Below are positions 3,687 to 63,619 of a stretch of 64,000 nucleotides of DNA, piece by piece (position 1 is the stretch's first letter; every line of letters starts with the position of its first letter). The notes beneath the pieces were generated by a model, which saw only the letters and a program-made list of their open reading frames with translations, did no database searches and was not told the origin of the DNA. Source of the DNA: Octopus vulgaris (lineage: Eukaryota); the NCBI GenBank assembly GCA_951406725.2, contig OX597814.1, forward strand, positions 154,690,001-154,754,000, in the 5' to 3' direction. Made by a program: the position numbers and the translations under genes.

Positions 3687-3765
3687 TTTCAACACATGTT
3701 TCGAAGACTGCATATTCTTAATTCTGAAGGAATAAGGTGCATTATGCCGTCTTCTCATCAGGAAA
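3687..3765 (-). ncRNA. Hammerhead ribozyme motif (type I, extended stem II)
   Basis: Minus strand: TTTC-CTGATGA-GAAGAC...GTCTTC-GAAA-CATGTG-TT-GAAA. Stem I 4 bp, stem II 6 bp perfect plus extension. Lies in a (TA)n-flanked element at ~3632-3935. Confidence 0.75.
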
Positions 3766-7200: not shown

Positions 7201-7203
<3 letters not shown>

Positions 7204-8668
7204 CAAAGCCAAACTTACAAATACTTAGGAATCCATGAACTAGATAAGACACAACACACACAAATGAAAGAGAAAATAAAAAAAGAATATTATAGACGAG
7301 TTAGATCAATACTAAAAACAGAGCTCAATGCTAAAAACAAGATAATATGTATCAACACTTTAGCTGTCCCAGTTATAAGTTACAGCTACAATATCCTTAA
7401 CTGGACACGAAATGAACTGTCCAAAATAGATAGGAAAACAAGAAAAATACTGACAGGATCTAGGATGCATCACCCAAAATCTGACATAGAAAGACTATAT
7501 ATACAACGTATAGAAGGTGGTAGAGGCCTTATACAGCTGGAAAACTACTATAAAATAACCACCATAGGACTGCAAAATACCTACTTCAGAAGGAAGGAAA
7601 ACTGATCCAGATAGTAGCAAAACACGAGCAAAACAAAAAAGTGTTCTCAGTATTTAAGGAAGCTGACAAATACAAACAAGAAATCATACCACCTAATAAA
7701 CACAAAGAAGAAGAAAAAGATGATGAAGAAACAACAAAAGCTATAAAACAAATGAAATCCAAACTAATAATACAACAGCAACGAGCCATGATAAAACGAT
7801 GGCAAGAAAAGCCCCTTCATGGTAAATACTGCACTAAACTAAACGCAAAAGAAATAGACAAAGAAAAAATCCCAGCAATGGTTGAGAAGCTCAGGACTCA
7901 AAGCAGAAACAGAGGGATTTTTAATTGCAGCACAAGACCAAAGCCTCCCCACCAGAAATTACCAAAAACATGTAATGAAAAGAAATATTACAAGTAACTG
8001 CAGAATATGTGGAGATGGACAAGAAACAATAAATCATATTATCTCTAGCTGCCCAGTCCTGGCTAAGAAGGAATATATTCACAGACATGACAGAGTTGGA
8101 ACCTACATACATTGGAAGCTATGCCAACATTATGGAATAACAACAGAAAAAAGATGGTATAGGCACACACCAGAAAAGGTCACAGAAAACGAGAAAGCAA
8201 CCATACTCTGGGATATGCCGATACACACAGATAGAGAAATTAAGGCCAACAGACCAGATATAGTTGTCAGAGATCATGAAGAAAAAAAAAATGCTTTCTA
8301 ATTGATGTATCAATACCGGCAGATGACAACGTGTCTCTAAAAGAAATGGAGAAACTCTCAAAATACAAAGACCTGGAAATAGAGATAACTAGAATGTGGA
8401 ACCTGAAAACAGAAACAATTCCTATCATAGTAGGTGCATTAGACATGATAAAAAAAATATTCAGACAAATACATAACAAAAACACCAGGACTTACAAACA
8501 CATATAACATACAGAAAATTGCACTACTAGGCACTGCACACATCCTAGCAGAACACTTTCCATACAATAACCATCAGAGCATCACAACAAATCACAGCAC
8601 ATACCCAAGGCACACAGAGCTGCGCTCGGTAGTGAAGTGAAAGCACGCTATAAAAATTAAACTACTGA
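7201..8668 (+). mobile_element. 5'-truncated, frameshifted Dong/R4-clade non-LTR retrotransposon (RT C-terminus, CCHC knuckle, REL endonuclease)
   Basis: YKYLG, HPKSDIERLYIQRIEGGRGL, IAAQDQSL, CRICGDGQETINHIISSC, RHD, PDIVV, LIDVSIP, EKLSKY. Flanked by (TAA)n on both sides. Confidence 0.9.
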
Positions 8669-12972: not shown

Positions 12973-13271
12973 TTAAAGGTTAAAAAATATATATTTGCGT
13001 CAATATGTCTGAAGAATATTAAAAAATTTTTTTCCTTACAATGACATAGTTTAGAAGAAAGACCGGCTTCGCGTTTAGCTTTTCAAATTTCTTACGACGT
13101 TATGTTTATGTTGAATAGATAACTCTATTCAACATAAACATAACGTCGTAAGAAATTTGAAAAGGTAAACGCGAAACCGGTCTTTCTTCTAAATTATGTC
13201 ATTGTAAGGAAAAAAATTTTTTTAATATTCTTCAGACATATTGACGCAAATATATATTTTTTAACCTTTAA
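12973..13271. repeat. Near-perfect ~300-bp palindrome with a 4-nt loop (TAAC, 13120-13123)
   Basis: Arms are reverse complements apart from about 3 substitutions and one homopolymer indel. Confidence 0.95.
13150..13188 (+). ncRNA. Minimal hammerhead motif, U3-A8 variant (mirror copy at ~13054-13092, minus strand)
   Basis: AAGAAA-T-TTGAAAA-GG-TAAAC-GC-GAAA-CCGG-TC-TTTCTT. Palindromic stem III CCGG, GUC triplet. Confidence 0.55.
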
Positions 13272-14544: not shown

Positions 14545-15115
14545 CACCACCTCCAGCACCAAAACCATCCCCACCACAACCATCACTACCACCACCACCA
14601 CCACCATCACCACAATCCCGCATACCACCACAACAACAATCACTACCACCGCCACCACCACTACCACCATCACCACCACCACACCGCACCACACCACCCA
14701 CCACTTATAATTTTTGAAATCTGGTAAAATCGCTGGCAATGATGACGATGATGATTATGATGATGACGATGATGATGAGGAAGACGATGATGAGGAGGAC
14801 GATGATGATGAGGAAGACGAGGAGGATGAGGATGGGGGTAGTAATGATGGTAGCAACAATGTAGTTCTTCATGACAATGTTGAAGACGGTGATGATGATA
14901 ATAACGACGACGACGATGACAACGACGGCGATTACGACAATGATTATGCTGATGATGATGATGATGACGATGATGATGACGATGATGATGATGACGATGA
15001 TGACGATGATAATGATGACGAAGATGATGATGACGATGATGATGATAATGATGATGATGACGACGACGACAACGATAATGACGACGACTACGATGACGTC
15101 TACGACGACGGCGAG
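14545..15115. repeat. Trinucleotide mosaic (CAC/GAT/GAC)n low-complexity tract
   Basis: Degenerate triplet repeats with no coding context. Confidence 0.85.
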
Positions 15116-15885
15116 GTCTGAAAGATATCTTTTGGCTAACGAGATGTATCTTATGTCAAATGCAGGGCCGTTAGTTACCAGCTGTCATTAAGTTGCGATA
15201 ATAGGTGGCGCCACCAAACGACCATTTTTTTTTGTTTCTTTCATGTTTTTTAAGGGGTAGACGTTGATATGTGAAATGATGAAGTTGCGAGTCCAGACAC
15301 GAAGTGAAGCACTATGTAAGATACATAATGGTTTAAAAACAAACAAACAAAAAGAAACAACTACATAGAAACCCACAATAACAAAACACGCATGCATCAA
15401 TCAAATCTGCCTTATCTCTTTCGCCATCAATCTAGACTCCGTTTTGTCTTATTTTATTCTGTTTTATTAAAAATAAGTTTTCTTCGCCCAATGTTTCTGA
15501 CCCTTCAGATGTAACCTTGTAGTGAAATTTTGACTTGTAAGTCTGACTTCACTTATTTGCCTGGTGAAAGAAAGCAATAAGGAAGAATGTGAAGTCGAAA
15601 GTACAGCCATTACATACAGACGTTGCGTTTTGTCTGTTGGACTGTTGGCCGCTCTCATCTGAAGATTTGGCACGGAGACAAGTGCTGCTCATTTATTTAT
15701 TTATTTATTTATTTGTTTATTCCAGGAGATATATTGCAGCATGATGTCGAGGCTTTCGATTTTAGTTTTGTTTTACGAAAGTAAGGATGTATGTATGTAT
15801 GTATGTATGTATGTATGTATGTATGTATGTATGTATGTATGTATGTATGTATGTATGTATGTACGTATGTACGTACGTACGTACG

Positions 15886-15929
<44 letters not shown>

Positions 15930-16030
15930 ATATATGTATGTATATATATTATATGTACGTATATATATATATATATATATATGATATATATATGTATGTA
16001 TATATATTAGAACAAAGTGTACGTACGCCG

Positions 16031-16074
<44 letters not shown>

Positions 16075-16080
<6 letters not shown>

Positions 16081-16683
16081 AAATACAAAATGGGACAAGA
16101 ACGCAAAACATCCGGACAACTAGGTGATACAAAAAGGGACAAAACATCCAGATAGACGATATGAAAAAACAAGGACGGGTCATTCGAAGCCTTTTATCTT
16201 CAGTTAAAAACCGGATCATCCTCGCAATTTCGGCTGATTAATCTTGTGATTGCCCCAATCTGGCCAGCCCCAAGGAAAAACTAAGCAAAGAGCATTAGAT
16301 TCCTTGGAAAAAGCATCGAATGTATACGAAAACAAGGACGGAAAAACAGATGATGTTACACGAATATAAATACAAAAATACAATAAAAATAACAATAATA
16401 ATAAAAACAGGACATAACAACAGGCGTCTTTCGACTTGGGACGAATTGAATTCAGCTGGCGTGCGTGGAAATGAAGCCCTACGACAGAGGGAAGAATATC
16501 GATGTGGCAGTGACCGTGGTCAGACGCAAAAGGGCTAGCAATCGGCTAATAGGTCACGTGAGAAGATAAAAGGCTTCGAATAACCCGTCCTTGTTTTTTT
16601 TGTATCGTCTATCTGGATGTTTTGTCCCTTTTTGTATCACCCAGTTGTCCGGATGTTTTGCGTTCTTGTCCTCTTCTGTATTT

Positions 16684-16690
<7 letters not shown>
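16075..16690. mobile_element. Family F3 element with ~125-bp terminal inverted duplication, (TA)n-flanked
   Basis: 16078-16201 is the reverse complement of 16562-16686 with few mismatches. Confidence 0.85.
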
Positions 16691-16739
<49 letters not shown>

Positions 16740-16740
<1 letters not shown>

Positions 16741-17420
16741 TTATAAAATGAGATAGGGGTTGAAAATTCAACCCACCATGGGATAATATATATCCAATAT
16801 ACTGCTAGATAGGTACCCAACAAAATTAATACATAGATGTTAGAAATTGTCAAGCAATCAGTTCATCTATTGTATTAAATGGGTAAGGGTAATAATATTA
16901 CCGTAAATTAATACTACAAAATTAGAGAATGGAGAAACATACTTAAATCAATAAAACATCAACTATCCGATGATACTCAATCCATACTTTAATACACCAT
17001 TACATAGGAGTAAAGGCAATATATAAAATGAAATGAGATATACAGTAATAGTAAAAGTAAAAAGATAAAGAGATATAAGTAAAAAATTACAAATACAATA
17101 TGCAAATAAATCAAAACTGACAGCTGTTTCGGCAGTGAGGACAGTCATACCTCATTTAACCTATAAGCCATAAAGGCAGGTATAAATGAGGCATTAACAA
17201 AGATGCCCCACGGCCTCTTCAGAGAATTAAATTAAATTTGTTATAATAGTGAAAAATATTATATAATCATATACATATAAATATAAAAATATAAAAAAGT
17301 AAAATAGTAAAAATATTGCCTTTACTCCTATGTAATGGTGTATTAAAGTATGGATTGAGTATCATCGGATAGTTGATGTTTTATTGATTTAAGTATGTTT
17401 CTCCATTCTCTAATTTTGTA

Positions 17421-17424
<4 letters not shown>
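16740..17424 (-). mobile_element. Penelope-like HHR element with ~112-bp internal inverted duplication
   Basis: 16911-17022 is the reverse complement of 17313-17424. HHR lies between the arms; (TA)n flanks. Confidence 0.8.
17113..17228 (-). ncRNA. Hammerhead ribozyme with long stem II hairpin
   Basis: Minus strand: CT-CTGAAGA-GGC...GCC-GAAA-CAGCTG-TC-AG. Stem II includes ATGCCTCATTTA/TAAATGAGGTAT. Palindromic stem III, weak stem I. Confidence 0.7.
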
Positions 17425-17465
<41 letters not shown>

Positions 17466-17478
17466 TATATCATATATA

Positions 17479-17590
17479 GGAGGGGTGTATGAAGAATTTT
17501 GAGCCTTGAAGTATTGTACCTTCACCAGAAGACTTCTATCATGTTTTTTAATTTCGTTTTTGATGCTCAAGACTTTTCATACACCCCTCG
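17479..17590. mobile_element. Mariner-type MITE (112 bp)
   Basis: TIRs GAGGGGTGTATGAAGAATTTTGAGC / GCTCAAGACTTTTCATACACCCCTC, TA on both sides. Confidence 0.85.
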
Positions 17591-17600
17591 TATACATATA

Positions 17601-18139
17601 CTAGCTAAAGAGCTCGTCGCTGCCAGGCAATTTCTACAATAGAAAGTCCTATATAGATTTTAGTTTATTCCATGTAGACCATGACTTCCCCGACAGTTAG
17701 GCCTCTTGATCAGGACAGATTTGTGCAACTTTTCGCCAAAGCTTTAGTGACGATATTTTTTCTCCATTTAAATTATTTGCATGTCTGTTTGACCGTTTCA
17801 CATAACTTTATTCATTAAAACTTCAGAAATTCTTACAATTCTGGGGGTCGTACTCAATACTTGTCGCTTGCATAACGCTGTTCTTGCCGTCCCTGATATA
17901 AGTCACCCTCACTCTGCTATTGCTTCTCCCTCCGACTAATACATTTTGCACCCTTCTTATTTTATCATATAATTCGACCAACCCCACTGTGGAGAACATG
18001 ATAGATTTTTATTGAAATCCAATTAGTCTATTATTGAACTGGATGTTAGTGTAAAATCTATGCAAAGTTTTATGACTATTGGTTTGCTGGTTTAGTCAGT
18101 ACGATGGTAACAGACAGAGAGCTTGCCTTTTATATATGA
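17601..18139 (-). mobile_element. Decayed non-autonomous Helitron
   Basis: Same end architecture as 5488-5871: CTAG plus a GC-rich subterminal motif at left, ACAGACAGA...GCCTTTTATATATGA at right. Confidence 0.55.
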
Positions 18140-18192
18140 TATATTGTTGTTGTTGTTATTATTATTATTATTATTATTATTGTTATTATTAT

Positions 18193-18404
18193 TGAGTGAG
18201 AGAGCAGTTCATGCCATCAAAGTGACACTGGGGTAAAATATACGAAGCCCAATATACCCATCATGACTACCCGTCTGATAAAGGTACACCAGGCACATGC
18301 ATCACAACCATATGTGCTCGACATGGTGATCTCATATCAAGATAAACAGCACATGACCTTGCAGGTGGGGCCCAGTTAGAATTTTCTTCAGGTTGAGTAG
18401 CCCA
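18193..18404 (-). mobile_element. Truncated copy of (TAA)n-inserted non-coding element (longer copy at 46820-47367)
   Basis: High identity to 46820-47021. Abuts (ATT)n at left and stops at the 18405 palindrome. Confidence 0.85.
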
Positions 18405-18767
18405 GGACATATATATTTGTTTTAATTAGTTGTTATATCATATTATATATTTTTATAGTATAATTATATTATATTATAATGTTAATAGATGTATAATATG
18501 TCAATTGCATTTCTTTATTTCCTTTTATATATGGCCGTAGTCAAATGACTGAAACAAGTAAAAGAATAAAAGAATATATATATCAATGAGTGAAGAAATT
18601 AAAGGAAAAGACACTGAAGTCGTTCAGCAGGAGTTACATGGATTATCATTTAAAAGTTTGATTCCACTCCGTTTGCCTTAAAGTTTCTCGAGCTTCTAGC
18701 AGAATCTTTAAGTCGCATGGATTAGAATCAGACAATTTTAAATAATAAAAATAATAATAATAATAAC

Positions 18768-18818
<51 letters not shown>

Positions 18819-19164
18819 TTTATTATTTAAAATTGTCTGATTCTAATCCATGCGACTTAAAGATTCTGCTAGAAGCTCGAGAAACTTTAAGGCAAACGGA
18901 GTGGAATCAAACTTTTAAATGATAATCCATGTAACTCCTGCTGAACGACTTCAGTGTCTTTTCCTTTAATTTCTTCACTCATTGATATATATATTCTTTT
19001 ATTCTTTTACTTGTTTCAGTCATTTGACTACGGCCATATATAAAAGGAAATAAAGAAATGCAATTGACATATTATACATCTATTAACATTATAATATAAT
19101 ATAATTATACTATAAAAATATATAATATGATATAACAACTAATTAAAACAAATATATATGTCCT
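18404..19164. repeat. ~760-bp palindrome centred on (AAT)n/(ATT)n
   Basis: 18404-~18745 is an apparently exact reverse complement of ~18825-19164. Includes a SINE A tail fragment. Confidence 0.95.
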
Positions 19165-19289
19165 ACAATTTGTTTCGATTTATGAATCGAAACGAATTGT
19201 GAATTTATAAAAAAATCCACATTTATGTGAATTTACGAGTCTACTTAGCAGCCCCTGCATGAAATTTTTGTCTTTTTTTTTAGACAAAT

Positions 19290-19376
19290 ATTGCCCTGAC
19301 GAGATTCATATATATAAATGTGATTTTTTAAATAAATTCAGTAGTGGATAAGAATCGAAACAAATTGTAAGATATA
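19290..19376 (+). ncRNA. Hammerhead ribozyme motif
   Basis: CTGACGA-GATTC...GAATC-GAAA-CAAATTG-TA. Stem I is decayed. A sister copy on the minus strand at 19161-19180 reads GAAACAAATTGTA/GGACAT. Confidence 0.6.
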
Positions 19377-19615
19377 TATTTCTTTTAATTATTTGTTATA
19401 TTATACCACATCATATTATATTATATATTTTTATAGTATAATTATATTATATTATATTATAATGTTAATAAATTTATAATATGTCAATTGTATTTCTCTA
19501 TTTGCTTTAATATTTATATATATTTTTTCTCTATTATATTGTGGTATTTAACTGAAGAACCAGTGAAAATTGGATGTTTTCCATCCCTTTGAAGGAAATT
19601 GTTTATTCCCTAGAT

Positions 19616-19766
<151 letters not shown>

Positions 19767-19858
19767 ATGTATATAACAACGTAAACTTGCAAGGTACCGC
19801 ACGAGTGAAACTATATAGGAAAGAAGATTTGAAAATGCAGGGGTGTTCTTGTTTATTG

Positions 19859-19900
19859 ACTTGACCGGTTTCAGTTTTTTTAAAAGCGATTTTCAAAAGT
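19859..19900 (-). ncRNA. Minimal hammerhead motif, U3-A8 variant
   Basis: Minus strand: ACTT-TTGAAAA-TCGC...CT-GAAA-CCGG-TC-AAGT. Stem I 4 bp, stem II decayed. Confidence 0.55.
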
Positions 19901-21368
19901 AAAATGTAAGGCTTTGTGTAGCCTTTGTTGTGTTAAAGAATGGTTATCATAAATGTATTAAAATACAGTGATACAGTATTTGACAATGATAAGAAAATGT
20001 TTTTTTTCTTTGAATGTGTGTGCGTTTTATTTTTCACTGGGGAACGGGCGTGTTGTGTTCGTGAATGTGTGCACGTATGTGTGTATATATGCATGTGTGT
20101 GGGAGGAGTCGTATTTGCGTGTATTTGCGTGTTTGTGTGTGCATCTGTGTATGTGTGGGTGTGTTTGTGTGAGTGTGTCTTGTAATTGTCAAGGCAGTAT
20201 GTATGTGTGCATGTAGTGTTTATGTATGTGTGTATGTGTGTGTATGTGAGAGTTAGTTGTGGTTCGTGTTGCATTTTTAATTTAACAAATATGTTGTGCT
20301 TGTTGTCCATCAGGTTTAGTGGCAGTTTATTTTTGTTGCTTTTTAACTTCATATTAGACCTGATGACATATAGACATATGATTGAAAGTATTCCAGTCAT
20401 GACCAACCCATTTATTTTCAGTTATAATATACCATCTTTGACTACGTTATCTAATGTATCCCTTTTTAAGGTGGTTGTGTGTAATTTCTGGATGTTGTTT
20501 TTAGTGGCTCAAGCGAACACTCAGAGACTCTTACTTAAGCGCTGTATTTATTTAGCTTATTGTAGAATTCAACGTGTACAAAAGCGCAGTGTGAAACCCA
20601 CCTTTAATGTATTAAATAGTTTGAAAAATATCTCATTTCTGAAATATAGGTGGCAGTGAACAGCAAATATATCCCAAGCAACTATATATTTAAGTATACA
20701 TAGATAACAAGGGGAATTACGCTATAACTAAAAGGTGCTTCAACTGTTTCCAGCGATGGTTTAAAATCTCCCATGAACCAACGGAGAAAAAGTAGATATT
20801 TCTTATAGTATTATTATTATTTAAAACATGCCCCATCGCTTTTAAACATACACAATCTGTTCTTTGATGATTCTTGCGTGATTTGTGAACAACCAATCAA
20901 AGTGATAATTAAAAGGAAGGCCTACAGCTTCGTTTTTTGTGAGCAAGGTAGTGTCGCAAAGCGAGATATATTCGTACTTGCTTGAATAATAAAAAAAATA
21001 TTTATTCCTTTCCGGCGTGACTGTGTGATAAGAAGTTTGCTTCTCAACTACATGGTTTTGTGATACTTTTGGCAAGTGTCTTCTACTATTGCCTCGAGCC
21101 GACCAAAGCCTTGTGAGAGCATTGACAGTGTTTGTTCCAATGCTTCAGTGTGCAAGTAATTTATTAATCAAACTATCTGGTAAGCATGCGCTGTTAACGT
21201 AACTCGGTCTAACTGGTTTATTTAAAACCTTTGCGTATCTCGGAGATCAGGTAGTCTATCCAGGTCGACTCACTACTTTTCCGCTTCGAGAGGTCATAAC
21301 CCGATATTGTGGAAATGTAATTAGAATGTGGCAGGAAAAAATCGCAAGACGGATTCTTCAAACCGAAC

Positions 21369-21439
<71 letters not shown>

Positions 21440-21442
<3 letters not shown>

Positions 21443-21625
21443 GGAAAGTTTACGAAAATAAACAAAAGACGAAGGCAGGTGGTGTACAAACAAACAAATG
21501 TATTAGTATAGCGCGCAGGAATAGAAGAAGTCTTTTACGTTTCGAGCCTACGCTCTTCTACAGAAAGATACACAGAAAACAACAAGGAGAGAAAAAAAAT
21601 GTGTGTAGTAGCTAACGATCTATCA
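21440..21625 (-). mobile_element. Short HHR element family F2 (HHR 21531-21568)
   Basis: Minus strand: TCTTT-CTGTAGA-A-GAGC-GTAG-GCTC-GAAA-CG-TA-AAAGA. Homologous to 31545-31780. Its 3' end lies at (TA)n. Confidence 0.75.
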
Positions 21626-21639
21626 TCGAGCAGCAGTAG

Positions 21640-23040
21640 TTAGTGTAAGGCAATGGACAAGATGTTATAGCTAAAGCTCAAAGAAGACAAACCCAGTTTA
21701 AGCATGGTATAAACTAAATGAAGACGATAACGATGCGAAACAACTTCTTTGTACTGAAATACTCTACGACTATGTTTTTAACAACAGGGCAAGTGAATGG
21801 AAAAAAGTGCACAACTTTTTCGACCAGACTGAGGGATACTGAAATGTTACATCTTCATCTGTTTCCACTACGTGATCCAACTATCAGAAGTTTTAAAAAT
21901 TTGCAAACTGTAAATGATAAAGTATTTGTAGCATTTCAAGAAACAGCAGATAAACACAATTTACTTCCTAATGATAAGGGTGGATGAGATGCCTAGAAGA
22001 AACTGCAGGTGTTGATATGCCATCTCAGTTGAGAAAATCTATGCAGCTATGTGTGAATTTAACATGCCAAATGATCTGTAAAACGGTATCAACAAGCATG
22101 AAAATGCAGGCATTGAAAACTTTCAGCGAATGTACTGGAGAGATTTCTATTAGAATATCTCCCGTAAGGAGTTAGATATGGCATTTTTTACATTTTCCCG
22201 TTCCAATTGGTAATTATGCTTATCAAATATGTTGGGAGAATAATCCCGGGCTGAGGAGATTAAATATTCTTAATTCCCGGTAGAATAATTATTGAGAAAG
22301 GCGTTTATGTCATCGATAATGACGAATCAACAGATTTTCTTTTTAAATGTATCTGGTGAAATTCATATTCAAGCAGGGCCACGATTCTTCCATTTGTTCC
22401 AAATAAAATAGCCGCTGATTATCTTAAGGAAGAGTGGCTTGTGCAAAGTAGTTTTAAATTTGTAGTAGGAACATCAATGTCATTAGTAAGAATATCATGT
22501 CATGGACTATAGTATATTTATGATGTATTTCGATGTCGGAGAACAAGAATTTAATTATTGAACATTGAGAGTTAGTTATAGGATTTTAGTTAATAATGCT
22601 GGGCTTCTGGATGACAATTCTTATACCATCAGGAATTATTGTCAATAAAGATAATATAGACCTAATTTACAGAAATTCAGCCAACAGTTGCAATGATGAG
22701 TGAATTGCCGAGTTATTCATAAAGAATATACATCCTATAAAACAGGGAGACACCGTCACTCAGCAACGACATTCTGCCGCTCACACAGGGTGTAACTAAA
22801 GAATATAAAATTAATGATTCTGTTCCTATTGATGATGATAATCAGGCGGCTCAAGATATTCTGGTGAGAATTTTAAACAAAACCCATCTGGAATGTTTGC
22901 TTGTATTTTGAAAGTGAAAGCGATGTCAACACGTAAAGTAAAATCACGAACCGGCTTAATAAATGGTACTGGGGTGCTCTTTAAAGAAATTCTCACTTGC
23001 TTTATTCATGCTGAAATATTAACAGGCAGCATTGTAAGCT
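21640..23040 (+). pseudogene. Decayed Helitron Rep/PIF1-helicase coding relic
   Basis: PTIRSFKNLQTVNDKVFVAFQETA...LLPND..W.RCLEETAGVDMPSQLR matches the Helitron GPTSF..LRTV...TF.EA...GLL.DD..W...L.EA.....P.QLR block. LINGT and IHAEILTG occur later. Many frameshifts. Confidence 0.7.
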
Positions 23041-23091
23041 ATGATGATCGGGTTACTTTAAAGCTTGGTCTGCTGCCATCTAAAAATCGAC

Positions 23092-23127
<36 letters not shown>

Positions 23128-23827
23128 AAAGAACAGTAATTGTCTATGTTGTACATGGCATTGGCCACATGTTTTTTTAAGGGCTATTTATCTGTTATTT
23201 CTAGCGGATTGCTCGACCGTGCAAAGGCTTTCTTTCATTTGGGGAACACAGGTCGAGACTGATCATGACATTAACTATATCTGATAATGAAAATATTATC
23301 AAACACAAATTAGTAACAGAATATCTTATCAAGTCAAACGGTTAGAAAAGCGGGCAGTTAGAAACGGTAGATATTCAGAAATTGCAGACTTAGCTTTTCG
23401 CTCTATAACTGAGATTTTCGTATCGCATGAGTTCCTGTCTAATTGGAATAAACTAAGTTTAGCAGAATCTTGACATTTATCTTTTGTCAATCAAACGTGC
23501 AGTTCAAAGTTCAGACGATTTTCAGTTCCTTTAGAAAAACTGTATTTCGAGAATTTTTTTTTTTGTCGTATTTACGGCAACACACTTAATACGAATTTTG
23601 TTGTGTCTAGGGAGATTTTCCCAACCATTTAAAGCTGCTACAAGCGATTAACACGAAGAGATTTATTATTTAAACAGGTATGGTGGTATGGTTAAGAAAT
23701 TCAGCTTGCATGCATGTCGTTTCAAGTTCGGTTCCACTGTGTAGCATCTTGGTCAGGTGCAAAAGACCATCGTATGTCTAGCTATTTATCTACCTATGAC
23801 TGTCAGTTTGTCTGTCTCTATGTATGC

Positions 23828-23891
<64 letters not shown>

Positions 23892-24002
23892 GTGCAGCCC
23901 TGTGTGGCTAATAAAGAAACATATCTATCTATCTATCTATCTATCTATATATAAACAAACTTTTGAAAGAGTTGAATATGTTGGTATTTTATAAATAAGG
24001 AA

Positions 24003-30496: not shown

Positions 30497-30529
<33 letters not shown>

Positions 30530-30533
<4 letters not shown>

Positions 30534-30745
30534 ATCCAAACATGAAAACACAAAGAGAAAACACAACAACGAGAGGAAGTGGTACAAGTATAGTGTTAAT
30601 GGACGCTTAGGAAAGGAAAGAAAGAAAGAGGATTTAACGTTTCGAACGGAACTCTTCATCAGAAACATAGGAAGAGGAAATATCCAAGGAAGGGAAGACG
30701 GACGAAAAAAAATCGCCAACGATACACATGCGGTCACATTTTGAA
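30530..30745 (-). mobile_element. Family F1 HHR element (HHR 30632-30666, intact core)
   Basis: Minus strand: GTTT-CTGATGA-A-GAGT-TCC-GTTC-GAAA-CG-TT-AAAT. (TA)n flanks. Confidence 0.8.
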
Positions 30746-31544: not shown

Positions 31545-31780
31545 ATCTCCCATTCTTTCTACCTCTCCTGTCAAACCTTTTTTCACTCGCCATGCTTGAT
31601 CGCTAAATCATGTTTTTTTTTATTCTCTCTGTGTTTATTTTCTCTTATTCCTTTCTGTTGAAGAGCGTTGGCTCAAAACGTAAAATACTTTCTCACTTTC
31701 CCGAGCGTTAAACTAATACACCTGCTTGTTGTTCATACACCTATCTTCGTTTTTTGTTTTTCCGTAGATTTCAACTTTAT
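31545..31780 (+). mobile_element. Family F2 HHR element (core 31651-31686, GAAA mutated to AAAA)
   Basis: CTTT-CTGTTGA-A-GAGC-GTTG-GCTC-AAAA-CG-TA-AAA. Its 3' end lies at (TA)n. Confidence 0.7.
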
Positions 31781-39555: not shown

Positions 39556-39758
39556 ATCGCGTGTGTTTCGTTGGCGATTTTTTTTCCTCCGTCTTCTCTT
39601 CCTTGGATCTTTCCTTTTCCTATGTTTCTGATGAAGAGCTCCACTCGAAACGTTAAATCCTCCTTCCTTCTTTCCTTTCCTGAGCGTCCAATAACAACAT
39701 ACTTGTTCCACGTCCTCGCGTTGTTGTGTTTTCTGTTTGTGTTTTCATGTATGGATTT

Positions 39759-39762
<4 letters not shown>
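39556..39762 (+). mobile_element. Family F1 HHR element (HHR 39624-39658, intact core)
   Basis: GTTT-CTGATGA-A-GAGC-TCC-ACTC-GAAA-CG-TT-AAAT. Its 3' end lies at (TA)n. Confidence 0.8.
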
Positions 39763-46758: not shown

Positions 46759-46821
<63 letters not shown>

Positions 46822-47365
46822 GAGTGAGCGAGCAGAGCATGCCATCAAAATGATACTGGGGTAAAATATACGAAGCCCAGTATACCCATCATGACTACCC
46901 GTCTGATAAGGTTACACCAGGCACATGCATCACAACCATATGTGCGCGACATGGTGATCTCATATCAACATGACCTTGTAGGTGGAGCCCAGTTAGAATT
47001 TTCTTCAGATCGAGTAACCCATCCCGCTCAAAAGGTCCCTGAATAAGGGTTGTTTAAGGACGTTGAACGAAACACCCATGTTTCCAGAGGTGAATTATTC
47101 AAACCCCAAAGAATCCTTCTCAACACATGGCTATGATGCTCCCCCACTACTTCTGCTCGTGATCAGAGATGCACATATCGTCAGCCACTAAGGGACATGC
47201 TCAACTGGTTAAGGTCAAACAACTGACAAGCAAATCTGTGGTATTGAGCAGAATATTTGCTGTAGCCCATCTTTTATACCAAGACAGAACAATGTACATG
47301 ATAACACTTCCAATCAGTTAAGATCAGAAGCCATGAGAGCCACTGCCTGGTACTGCATCAGGGCA

Positions 47366-47430
<65 letters not shown>

Positions 47431-54179: not shown

Positions 54180-54183
<4 letters not shown>

Positions 54184-54472
54184 GAGGTAACTAGAATGTG
54201 GAACCTGAAAACAGAAACAATTCCTATCATAGTAGGTGCATTAGGCATGATAAAAAAATATTCAGACAAATACATAACAAAAACACCAGGACTTACAAAC
54301 ACATATAACATACAGAAAATTGCACTACTAGGCACTGCACACATCCTACGCAGAACACTTTCCATACAATAACCATCAGAGCATCACAACAAATCACAGC
54401 ACATACCCAAGGCACACAGAGCTGCGCTCGGTAGTGAAGTGAAAGCACGCTATAAAAATAAAAATAAAACTA

Positions 54473-54478
<6 letters not shown>
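54180..54478 (+). mobile_element. 3' end of Dong/R4-like LINE, near-identical to 8380-8668
   Basis: IEVTRMWNLKTETIPIIVGALGMIKK...GTAHILRRTLSIQ* plus 3' UTR. (TAA)n on both sides. Confidence 0.9.
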
Positions 54479-62468: not shown

Positions 62469-63099
62469 ATTTTAACTAATTATTATAAGTTCAATTGCAA
62501 ACGTGCAAAAAAAATCAGCACTATGATTTTAACTGTTATATTAGTTATGCAATTACGACACGCCCTGCTAGCTCACAATGCACAATTGCAATGCACCAAA
62601 TCATACAACACAGAAAACAGTACAAAGACATTAGTGCACAATATATCCACAGTATATCTAGACCACACAGGGAAGTGCTAAAATAAATACACACACAACA
62701 TACATTATGCAACAGCAAAAACAAACATCTGACTGATGACATGAATTTATAAGTAATGTCTACATCAATCTCACATATACGTATACATAAGAAAACGTGT
62801 ATGCTGCGTATATTCTCACATACATGTGCATCTGCATGTCCATTTTATTGTATTCATTTAAATAGTAATGTTCGCTTTCTTTTTTTAATTCAATTTTGAC
62901 TGGCCACCTACTTGGTAGCAACGTCATGAAGAAAAGCATCTTATTCTATCCTATTTATGTTATAAATCATAAGATCCTGGAGATTTTTATAGTCTCACAT
63001 GTCGTAATCATTTTTAGATATGAATTTGTATTCTCTCCCCAAGAACCCAAATTCAGCCATACTTTGCTTCAGACGGGTTGGTACGCATTGTATGTATGG

Positions 63100-63205
63100 G
63101 GAGAATTCACAAAATCAAAAGACGAAGACAGGTGGTGTAGATAACAAATAGATGTCTTAGTATAACGCTCGGGAAGTAAAAAAGTCTTTAACGTTTCGAG
63201 ACTAC
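63100..63205 (-). mobile_element. Family F2 fragment (3' half of HHR only)
   Basis: Matches 21440-21550: GACGAAGACAGGTGGTGTA...TAACGTTTCGAG. Confidence 0.7.
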
Positions 63206-63619
63206 ATGTATGCATGCATGCGCACCTTTTTATGCCAATCTGATAACGTACCACTCCAGTATAACCAACGGCAAATACTGAGGAAATTTTCACAGGAAAT
63301 CATTTACAAGCAATGGTGTTAGAAACAGAGTGAAACCGAAACAATTGTCACAGAGGTGTACTCAATTCATTCTTCTTCATATTTATATAACAACGAAGGC
63401 AGCTATATGCAATATAAAACCAAAAAGGAAAATATTGAATTAACATTAATTATGACTGACGGTGCGGCAAAGAAGCACATTTCTATGCATAGACATGTTC
63501 TTCTTTGCGGCTCTAAAGGCTTTTAACTCTTATTTCTAGCAATACAGGTGCTACCCTGCACCGTCAGTCACAAATAATGACAATTATATATTTATATGTA
63601 TTGATATATACAGTATATC

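Follow-up and report, generated by a model that had tools for sequence, protein, structure and literature searches.

The window, i.e., the whole 64-kb stretch of DNA that was analysed, is microsatellite- and SINE-rich animal DNA, and its SINE may be an octopus repeat. Among the 5,028 inverted pairs of the window, the longest is formed by 18404-18783 and 18785-19164, with arms of 380 nt and an identity of 99%. On the left it adjoins a high-copy element that is cut off (repeat X), and on the right it runs into one of two copies of a repeat with a hammerhead ribozyme (HHR) motif. The motif was called by eye, and the cut site is predicted. The features of the locus are as follows:

18144-18193, plus strand: (GTT)(ATT)n array that borders repeat X on the left, from the sequence
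18194-18404, no strand assigned: repeat X, cut off; first 200 bp (in plus-strand order) of a 550-bp high-copy element, 88% identity to 46815-47021
18405-18776, plus strand: left arm, taken as the copy; sub-parts from the self-comparison of the window
18405-18530, plus strand: left arm, post-cut part of the HHR repeat
18531-18583, plus strand: left arm, SINE end
18584-18749, plus strand: left arm, low-copy segment C
18750-18776, plus strand: left arm, (AAT)n with one AAC
18777-19164, minus strand: right arm, taken as the source; (ATT)n at 18777-18818, then segment C, SINE end and post-cut part of the HHR repeat to 19163; H17 is 19164
19165-19200, no strand assigned: hairpin of 36 nt with a 16-bp stem, 1 mismatch and a 4-nt loop; foot at the base that directly follows the palindrome
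19201-19270, minus strand: minus HHR copy, 5' half, decayed; CTAAGTA as core (19248-19242), 10-nt insertion upstream; from the alignment to the plus copy
19264-19291, no strand assigned: small palindrome at the head-to-head junction; predicted fold of -7.3 kcal/mol for 19255-19300
19272-19617, plus strand: second copy of the HHR repeat; core 19296-19302, GAAA 19357-19360, H17 19369; right end deduced from the family depth
19618-19764, plus strand: (AAT)n array after the plus copy

Structure of the palindrome and direction of copying

With the (AAT)n/(ATT)n arrays of the centre set aside, base-by-base pairing of the arms revealed no difference at any of 345 positions, and the symmetry ended at 18403/19165. 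All differences were confined to the central arrays, namely to the AAT|ATT pivot (18776/18777) and position 18767. Compared with the left array, which carries one private AAC, the right array has five additional units (15 nt). With 0 differences in 345 bp, the divergence of the arms is below 0.87% (95% upper bound). Each arm is composed of 126 bp of an AT-rich repeat (A), a 53-bp SINE end with 12 other matches within the window, the 165-bp segment C, for which no other match was found in the window, and the array. An earlier note on this DNA had described a palindrome at 18404-19164, the end of which coincides with a predicted HHR cut, and a duplicated unit that includes a SINE tail as unrelated flank and ends in (AAT)n. 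The palindrome is real in the sequence and its unit has this composition. The end also lies where it had been placed: the minus strand runs from GAAA-C-AAATT-G-TA into GGACAT with H17 at 19164, and the left arm starts with GGACAT at 18405.

The right arm is collinear with the plus-strand copy of the HHR family straight through the predicted cut. Therefore, two candidates could be ruled out, namely that the palindrome is a MITE and that the left arm is the source. The comparison of the sequences supports the view that the left arm was copied recently and locally, in inverted orientation, with the right arm as its source. Segment C also contains an older imperfect hairpin of 105 bp (18643-18748, 73%), which was duplicated along with the arm and may be a MITE.

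Sequencing runs bear on the presence of the left arm in the animal. 24 runs were listed, one of which (X1) holds over half of the words of the window (0.77), and four of the 24 were compared in detail, all as contigs. X1, of which 80% was covered, is possibly the window's own sample and thus not independent. An assembly or chimeric-read artefact, in which case the animal would lack the left arm, is highly improbable. It would agree with the observation that, among the matches listed, no contig spans 18404|18405 or the palindrome centre. The depth argues against it, because the X1 contig 18835-19011 inside the arm (0 differences) had a depth of 59.1, compared with 30.5 for the adjoining contig 19099-19395, which bridges the arm end, the hairpin and the plus HHR with 0 differences, and with 27.6 for another single X1 contig at 17677; two copies on one haplotype predict 54-55. 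However, other X1 contigs had depths of 46-69, and thus one arm copy on each of two haplotypes also fits. Extra X1 cover (21.9) in 18632-18703, which could be the second haplotype, was also weighed against an artefact. In addition, asymmetric arrays with a private AAC and a 1-nt join to unrelated DNA are, by our reasoning, not made by overlap assembly.

Run X3, which has another sample code in the same study, matched 19185-19333 without substitutions. Among the matches listed for the four runs no ancestral or empty allele was seen, with little or no cover of segment C in runs X2, X3 and X4. Contig joints from 18563-18576 to 18992-19005 were rejected as evidence for an empty site, because they are SINE/(TA)n copies from elsewhere with sides of less than 30 nt. 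An exact 22-nt pattern had 0 matches in metagenome contigs, and a phage collection gave no match.

The hammerhead repeats and the interrupted element

The two copies of the HHR repeat are arranged head-to-head (minus strand, 19038-19270; plus strand, 19272-19513) and are 76% alike over 209 columns. The summed family depth in run X1 was 470-1630 over 19280-19615, compared with about 30 per haplotype, which suggests a unit of about 350 bp followed by (AAT)n that is present in a few tens of copies at 85% identity. The core of the plus copy, CTGACGA (19296-19302), fits CUGANGA, and both copies contain GAAA...UH with a 2-bp helix III and a near-palindromic loop (self-dimer via helix III, -3.4 kcal/mol). 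Helix II of the plus copy has 5 bp and a pairing probability of only 0.15, and the commoner family letter at 19351 (16 X1 contigs) lengthens it to 8 bp. For helix I, -1.4 kcal/mol was predicted within the plus copy, -2.0 kcal/mol in trans (5' strand of the plus copy with 3' strand of the minus copy) and -0.2 kcal/mol within the minus copy. Rfam gave 0 hits at gathering level in the window, and none of its hammerhead models was among the hits at E<=10 in 18300-19700; the nine Rfam hits at E<=10 in this region were rejected as generic long-hairpin miRNA or sRNA models below their own cut-offs. No RT-coding frame was evident near the locus, judged by length and not by a family scan (58 frames of at least 55 aa in 15000-24000, the longest 162 aa). 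Without a Rfam hammerhead match and an autonomous element nearby, "PLE pLTR-like" thus denotes a resemblance of these repeats rather than an established membership.

The minus copy, which lies at the palindrome end, does not fit CUGANGA. Its core reads CTAAGTA, i.e., G5 and G8 are changed, and 10 nt are inserted into the 5' strand of its helix I. The caveat of the earlier note that the 5' half of this copy is scrambled was therefore true, and in comparison with CTGACGA in the neighbouring copy the decay is stronger than had been stated. G5 and G8 are needed for hammerhead catalysis. The exchange G8C abolishes HHR cleavage (PMC11167929). Because the arms are young (<0.9% divergence) and the HHR copy is decayed, the decay is likely older than the copying, unless the arms were homogenised later. 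With two core positions changed and its substrate strand folded into a hairpin, the minus copy probably could not cut when the left arm was made.

On the other side of the junction, repeat X is represented by an intact copy at 46822-47371, a 550-bp element without a long frame between two (ATT)n arrays, which is likely the partner, itself non-autonomous, of a LINE that targets (AAT)n. For the remaining 350 bp of repeat X no match was found near the palindrome locus. In all four runs compared (533, 305, 86 and 273 records) the family records of repeat X run on past 18404 with the sequence that the intact copy has at 47022. A18404 is the normal last shared base of repeat X and equally the H17 base, and thus the junction lies exactly at the predicted cut, with 1 nt of microhomology. 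The earlier statement that the A before GGACAT belongs to the interrupted element, and that the junction is at most 1 nt from the cut, agrees with this result. As the rest of repeat X is absent downstream, the event was a replacement or a co-insertion and not a clean insertion with a TSD; no TSD was apparent by eye at the locus. Repeat X and the left arm as one unit are flanked by two (ATT)n arrays, like the intact copy of X. The left arm alone has no array on its left and an array of opposite polarity on its right, so that flanks of the same polarity exist only for the unit of both. The contigs of the runs revealed that repeat X departs from the family majority at 18282 and 18318.

Further HHR-like repeats occur in the window. 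A second family of minimal HHRs (1219-1398; 30529-30725, minus strand; 39565-39762) is about 200 bp long and pyrimidine-rich with a (TA)n end, and two copies have intact cores. A third HHR-like family (21434-21600, minus strand; 31617-31759; 63091-63205, minus strand) has degenerate cores and in two copies a (TA)n end, and its copy 63091-63205 is 5'-truncated 15 nt upstream of its own H17. For the comparison of ends, these six copies and two copies of the present family were used; a ninth HHR-like motif at 3698-3761 (minus strand), single, with an intact core, a 6-bp helix II and a long loop, was left out because there is no homolog to define its ends. Other repeats include 5'-truncated, frameshifted pieces of R2-group LINEs within (AAT)n arrays (7201-8668 and 54183-54475). 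The piece 7858-8298 had an R2 match with an E value of 3e-4, and in three LINE frames Pfam detected nothing but zf-RVT. These pieces may be Dong-like, as their TAA targets suggest (PMC3812793). The second long palindrome of the window (12973-13271) has 147-bp arms with 3 substitutions and 1 indel and a spacer of 4-5 nt; it starts inside a SINE, has TA at both outer ends and no HHR, and is a MITE or an older fold-back. At 63430-63593 nested inverted repeats with 36-bp outer arms and a 48-bp inner palindrome are MITE-like.

A hairpin at the palindrome end and possible origins of the left arm

The end of the palindrome and the foot of the hairpin 19165-19200 coincide to the base, including the A at 18404/19164. 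The fold prediction for the hairpin is -11.3 kcal/mol as minus-strand DNA and -15.0 kcal/mol as minus-strand RNA. On the minus strand of 17000-21000, 3' ends with folds of -10 kcal/mol or below form two clusters, i.e., this hairpin and the palindrome centre. Apart from the palindrome centre, it is the only strong non-simple hairpin on the minus strand within 2 kb, and a 16-kb sample contained three such hairpins. By its sequence, the hairpin is an older small inverted duplication of the 3' half of the HHR. Arm end and hairpin end are two separate breakpoints, both at most 1 nt from the predicted cut; as the hairpin is built from the 3' half of the ribozyme, its foot and the cut site are inseparable at this locus. 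The mismatch in the hairpin and the many changes in the 5' half of the HHR, compared with the identical arms, indicate that the hairpin and the decay likely came first. A polymerase that copies the minus strand from the array meets the foot at 19165 and would thus stop after 19164, which is the observed end. It is likely that a stall of a polymerase at the hairpin fits the end better than self-cutting of an RNA.

We favour a local copy that was terminated by the hairpin, which is rather probable when DNA- and RNA-templated versions are taken together. In the DNA-templated version, to which we assign somewhat less than an even chance, the left arm would be an exact inverted copy of the adjoining 372 bp, made by one recent fold-back from the (AAT)n array and halted at the hairpin foot. 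A break or a stalled 3' end in the minus-strand array, possibly nicked by the endonuclease of a microsatellite-targeting retroelement, would have snapped back on a pairing of 1-2 bp, with five spare AAT units remaining as a loop. Segment C, the SINE end and the post-cut segment would then have been copied, a step of which the product is seen, and synthesis would have halted after 19164, the last unpaired template base ahead of the hairpin. Finally, the new end would have been joined to repeat X via 1 nt of microhomology, a product that is also seen, and the rest of X would have been lost or was never there. Several observations argue for this version. The source array is 15 nt longer than its copy, the direction expected from a retained loop; the palindrome ends exactly at the foot of a hairpin of a rare kind; and the arms are identical at 345/345 positions while the hairpin and the 5' half of the HHR have already changed. 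The lost 350 bp of X are about as long as an arm (345-372 bp), as a length-matched replacement would give, which is suggestive only. A second long palindrome without an HHR exists at 12973-13271, but it may be a MITE rather than a product of fold-back. From the literature it is known that replication stalls and switches template at hairpins (PMC3874155), that single template-switch events yield perfect inverted repeats without prior similarity and can replace flanking DNA (PMC5453318, PMC10710096), and that both breaks (PMC11724301) and L1 target sites (PMC11702581) give rise to fold-back inversions. The perfect reverse-complement copy of adjacent DNA with a short microhomology (345/345; 1 nt) is what characterizes such a template switch. 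However, 372 bp far exceeds both the short-range switches described in PMC5453318 and the fold-back inversions of PMC11724301, most of which measure 5-34 bp, and priming on 1-2 bp is weak. It is also left to chance that the older hairpin ends at U16.1, next to the cut (roughly 1 in 10 by our estimate), and the sequence cannot separate a DNA from an RNA template.

The RNA-templated version of the hairpin-stopped copy is unlikely, but has its own arguments. A Penelope-type or other RT, primed on the AAT-bearing strand, would have copied a local read-through transcript until the RNA hairpin made it fall off. The same event may have included an insertion of X, 5'-truncated and coming from the opposite end, so that two cDNAs were joined head to head. 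The hairpin is stronger as RNA, the unit of X and left arm has an (ATT)n array on either side, as the intact X does, cleavage at ATT on both strands of AT-rich DNA and priming that needs no homology are known from a PLE protein (PMC11167929), and cDNA joins in opposite orientation have been described for L1 (PMC11702581). Against it, the locus has no nearby RT-coding frame (maximum 162 aa, see above), and the two departures of X from the family majority weakly suggest that the arms are younger than X. Origins with an end defined by the ribozyme are, both forms together, about equally unlikely. In a two-step form, which is very unlikely, an old insertion with its 5' end at H17 would have entered X while the family was active, and a later template switch or conversion between the inverted copies would have made the arms identical. 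This would account for the exact H17 junction as well as for the young arms, it agrees with arm end and hairpin end both lying within 1 nt of the cut, and the correction of quasi-palindromes is a known process (PMC5453318). On the other hand, it requires two events, the earlier state left no trace, and H17 is not the end of any of the 8 other HHR-like copies of the window, in a small sample of mixed families.

The earlier note had proposed an in-cis transduction, in which the local hammerhead cut an RNA that extended across the flank as far as (AAU)n, and the cDNA of this RNA was inserted next to its source in a tail-to-tail arrangement. Its description of the right arm as the source and of the left arm as a recent local inverted copy with non-element flank, starting at the predicted cut, is supported; ribozyme cleavage as the likeliest cause is not, in view of the broken core and the hairpin at the same base, and we regard this form as highly improbable. 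The junction exactly at H17 and the HHR family with its PLE-type anatomy and head-to-head pair would fit. Moreover, ribozyme cuts set the 5' junctions of R2, which are joined by chance microhomology (PMC3774820), and cleavage in trans, as a dimer with the neighbouring copy and its intact core, is conceivable in principle (PMC4209133). But the source core is broken at G5 and G8, and the arms are too young for the decay to post-date them. The stretch from GAAA to H17 has 13 letters, 11 of which have a pairing value of at least 0.93 in the local fold of the minus copy, and the hairpin of the substrate strand (-15.0 kcal/mol as RNA) competes with -3.4 kcal/mol for the dimer helix III and -2.0 kcal/mol for helix I in trans. 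With (AAU)n at its end, an RNA would pair with the ATT strand and give a direct and not an inverted copy, and all three intact array-embedded elements checked (two R2-group LINE pieces and the intact X) have arrays of the same polarity on both sides. In PMC11167929, HHR mutants had no effect on insertion in vitro and no RNA-seq reads began at the cut. Among the matches listed, no pile-up of contig ends at H17 was seen in any of the four runs, which is weak evidence as only contigs were compared.

Comparison with known systems and meaning

Inverted and tandem pLTRs of PLEs (PMC3846280; PMC8557442) share with this locus the head-to-head HHR repeats with a junction palindrome (76%; hairpin 19264-19291), the (AAT)n context and the non-element flank. 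PLEs form tandem and inverted copies with junction palindromes, capture host DNA and use AT-rich targets, and a self-priming model yields read-through flanks and tail-to-tail products (PMC3846280, PMC8557442); the one PLE that has been purified cuts at ATT, requires no homology for priming and can do without its HHR in vitro (PMC11167929). In contrast to them, no RT/GIY-YIG frame lies nearby, no TSD is apparent by eye, and the large palindrome is tail-to-tail, the less frequent arrangement according to PMC3846280. The minimal type I hammerheads of metazoan PLEs (PMC4209133) resemble the plus copy in the CUGANGA/GAAA..UH core, the 2-bp helix III with a near-palindromic loop and the long helix II, but here loop II has about 40 nt, helix I is predicted to be weak, there is no Rfam hit, and the core on the palindrome side is broken. 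Animal non-LTR retrozymes (PMC7229834; 10.64898/2026.07.22.740005) likewise have a low-GC unit of about 350 bp, a type I HHR and no coding frame. They form direct tandem arrays, whereas only the inverted pair and the left arm, and no direct tandem repeats of the HHR unit, were found in the window.

Like the R2 junctions (PMC3774820), the junction of this locus shows chance microhomology and lies where self-cleavage is predicted; the R2 ribozyme is, however, HDV-like with tested activity and many junctions, compared with one junction at a hammerhead that is predicted to be inactive. The four-point template-switch model with event order 3-2-1-4 (PMC5453318; PMC10710096) and fold-back inversions (PMC11724301) have in common with the locus a perfect inverted repeat of adjacent sequence made in one step, minimal microhomology and the replacement of flanking DNA, but typical events comprise tens of bases instead of 372 bp. 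No report of HHR-defined in-cis palindromes was found in the literature searched, most subscription papers lying outside its reach.

It is unlikely that the junction of X and GGACAT is a genomic footprint of hammerhead cleavage in vivo. In this reading, the 5' end of an RNA would have been fixed by a Penelope-type HHR, and the RNA copied back next to its source, with flank and tail-to-tail, or made a perfect palindrome only later. The cut site would then be a recurrent breakpoint, as the end of the small hairpin is likewise at most 1 nt away, and HHR repeats would seed long palindromes in animal genomes. If this held genome-wide, it would bear on the role of the HHR in endonuclease-bearing PLEs, which is called unclear in PMC8557442; for insertion in vitro the HHR was dispensable (PMC11167929). 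Because hairpin and cut share one base here, one locus cannot decide the question, and counts of junctions must exclude sites with a competing hairpin. Inverted copies and the capture of flanks are already known for Penelope-like elements, and the present evidence is one locus. As a product of fold-back, the palindrome would be a further case of local inverted duplication in an animal genome rich in repeats and a mildly useful example of a hairpin-terminated template switch of 370 bp, which can yield long dsRNA.
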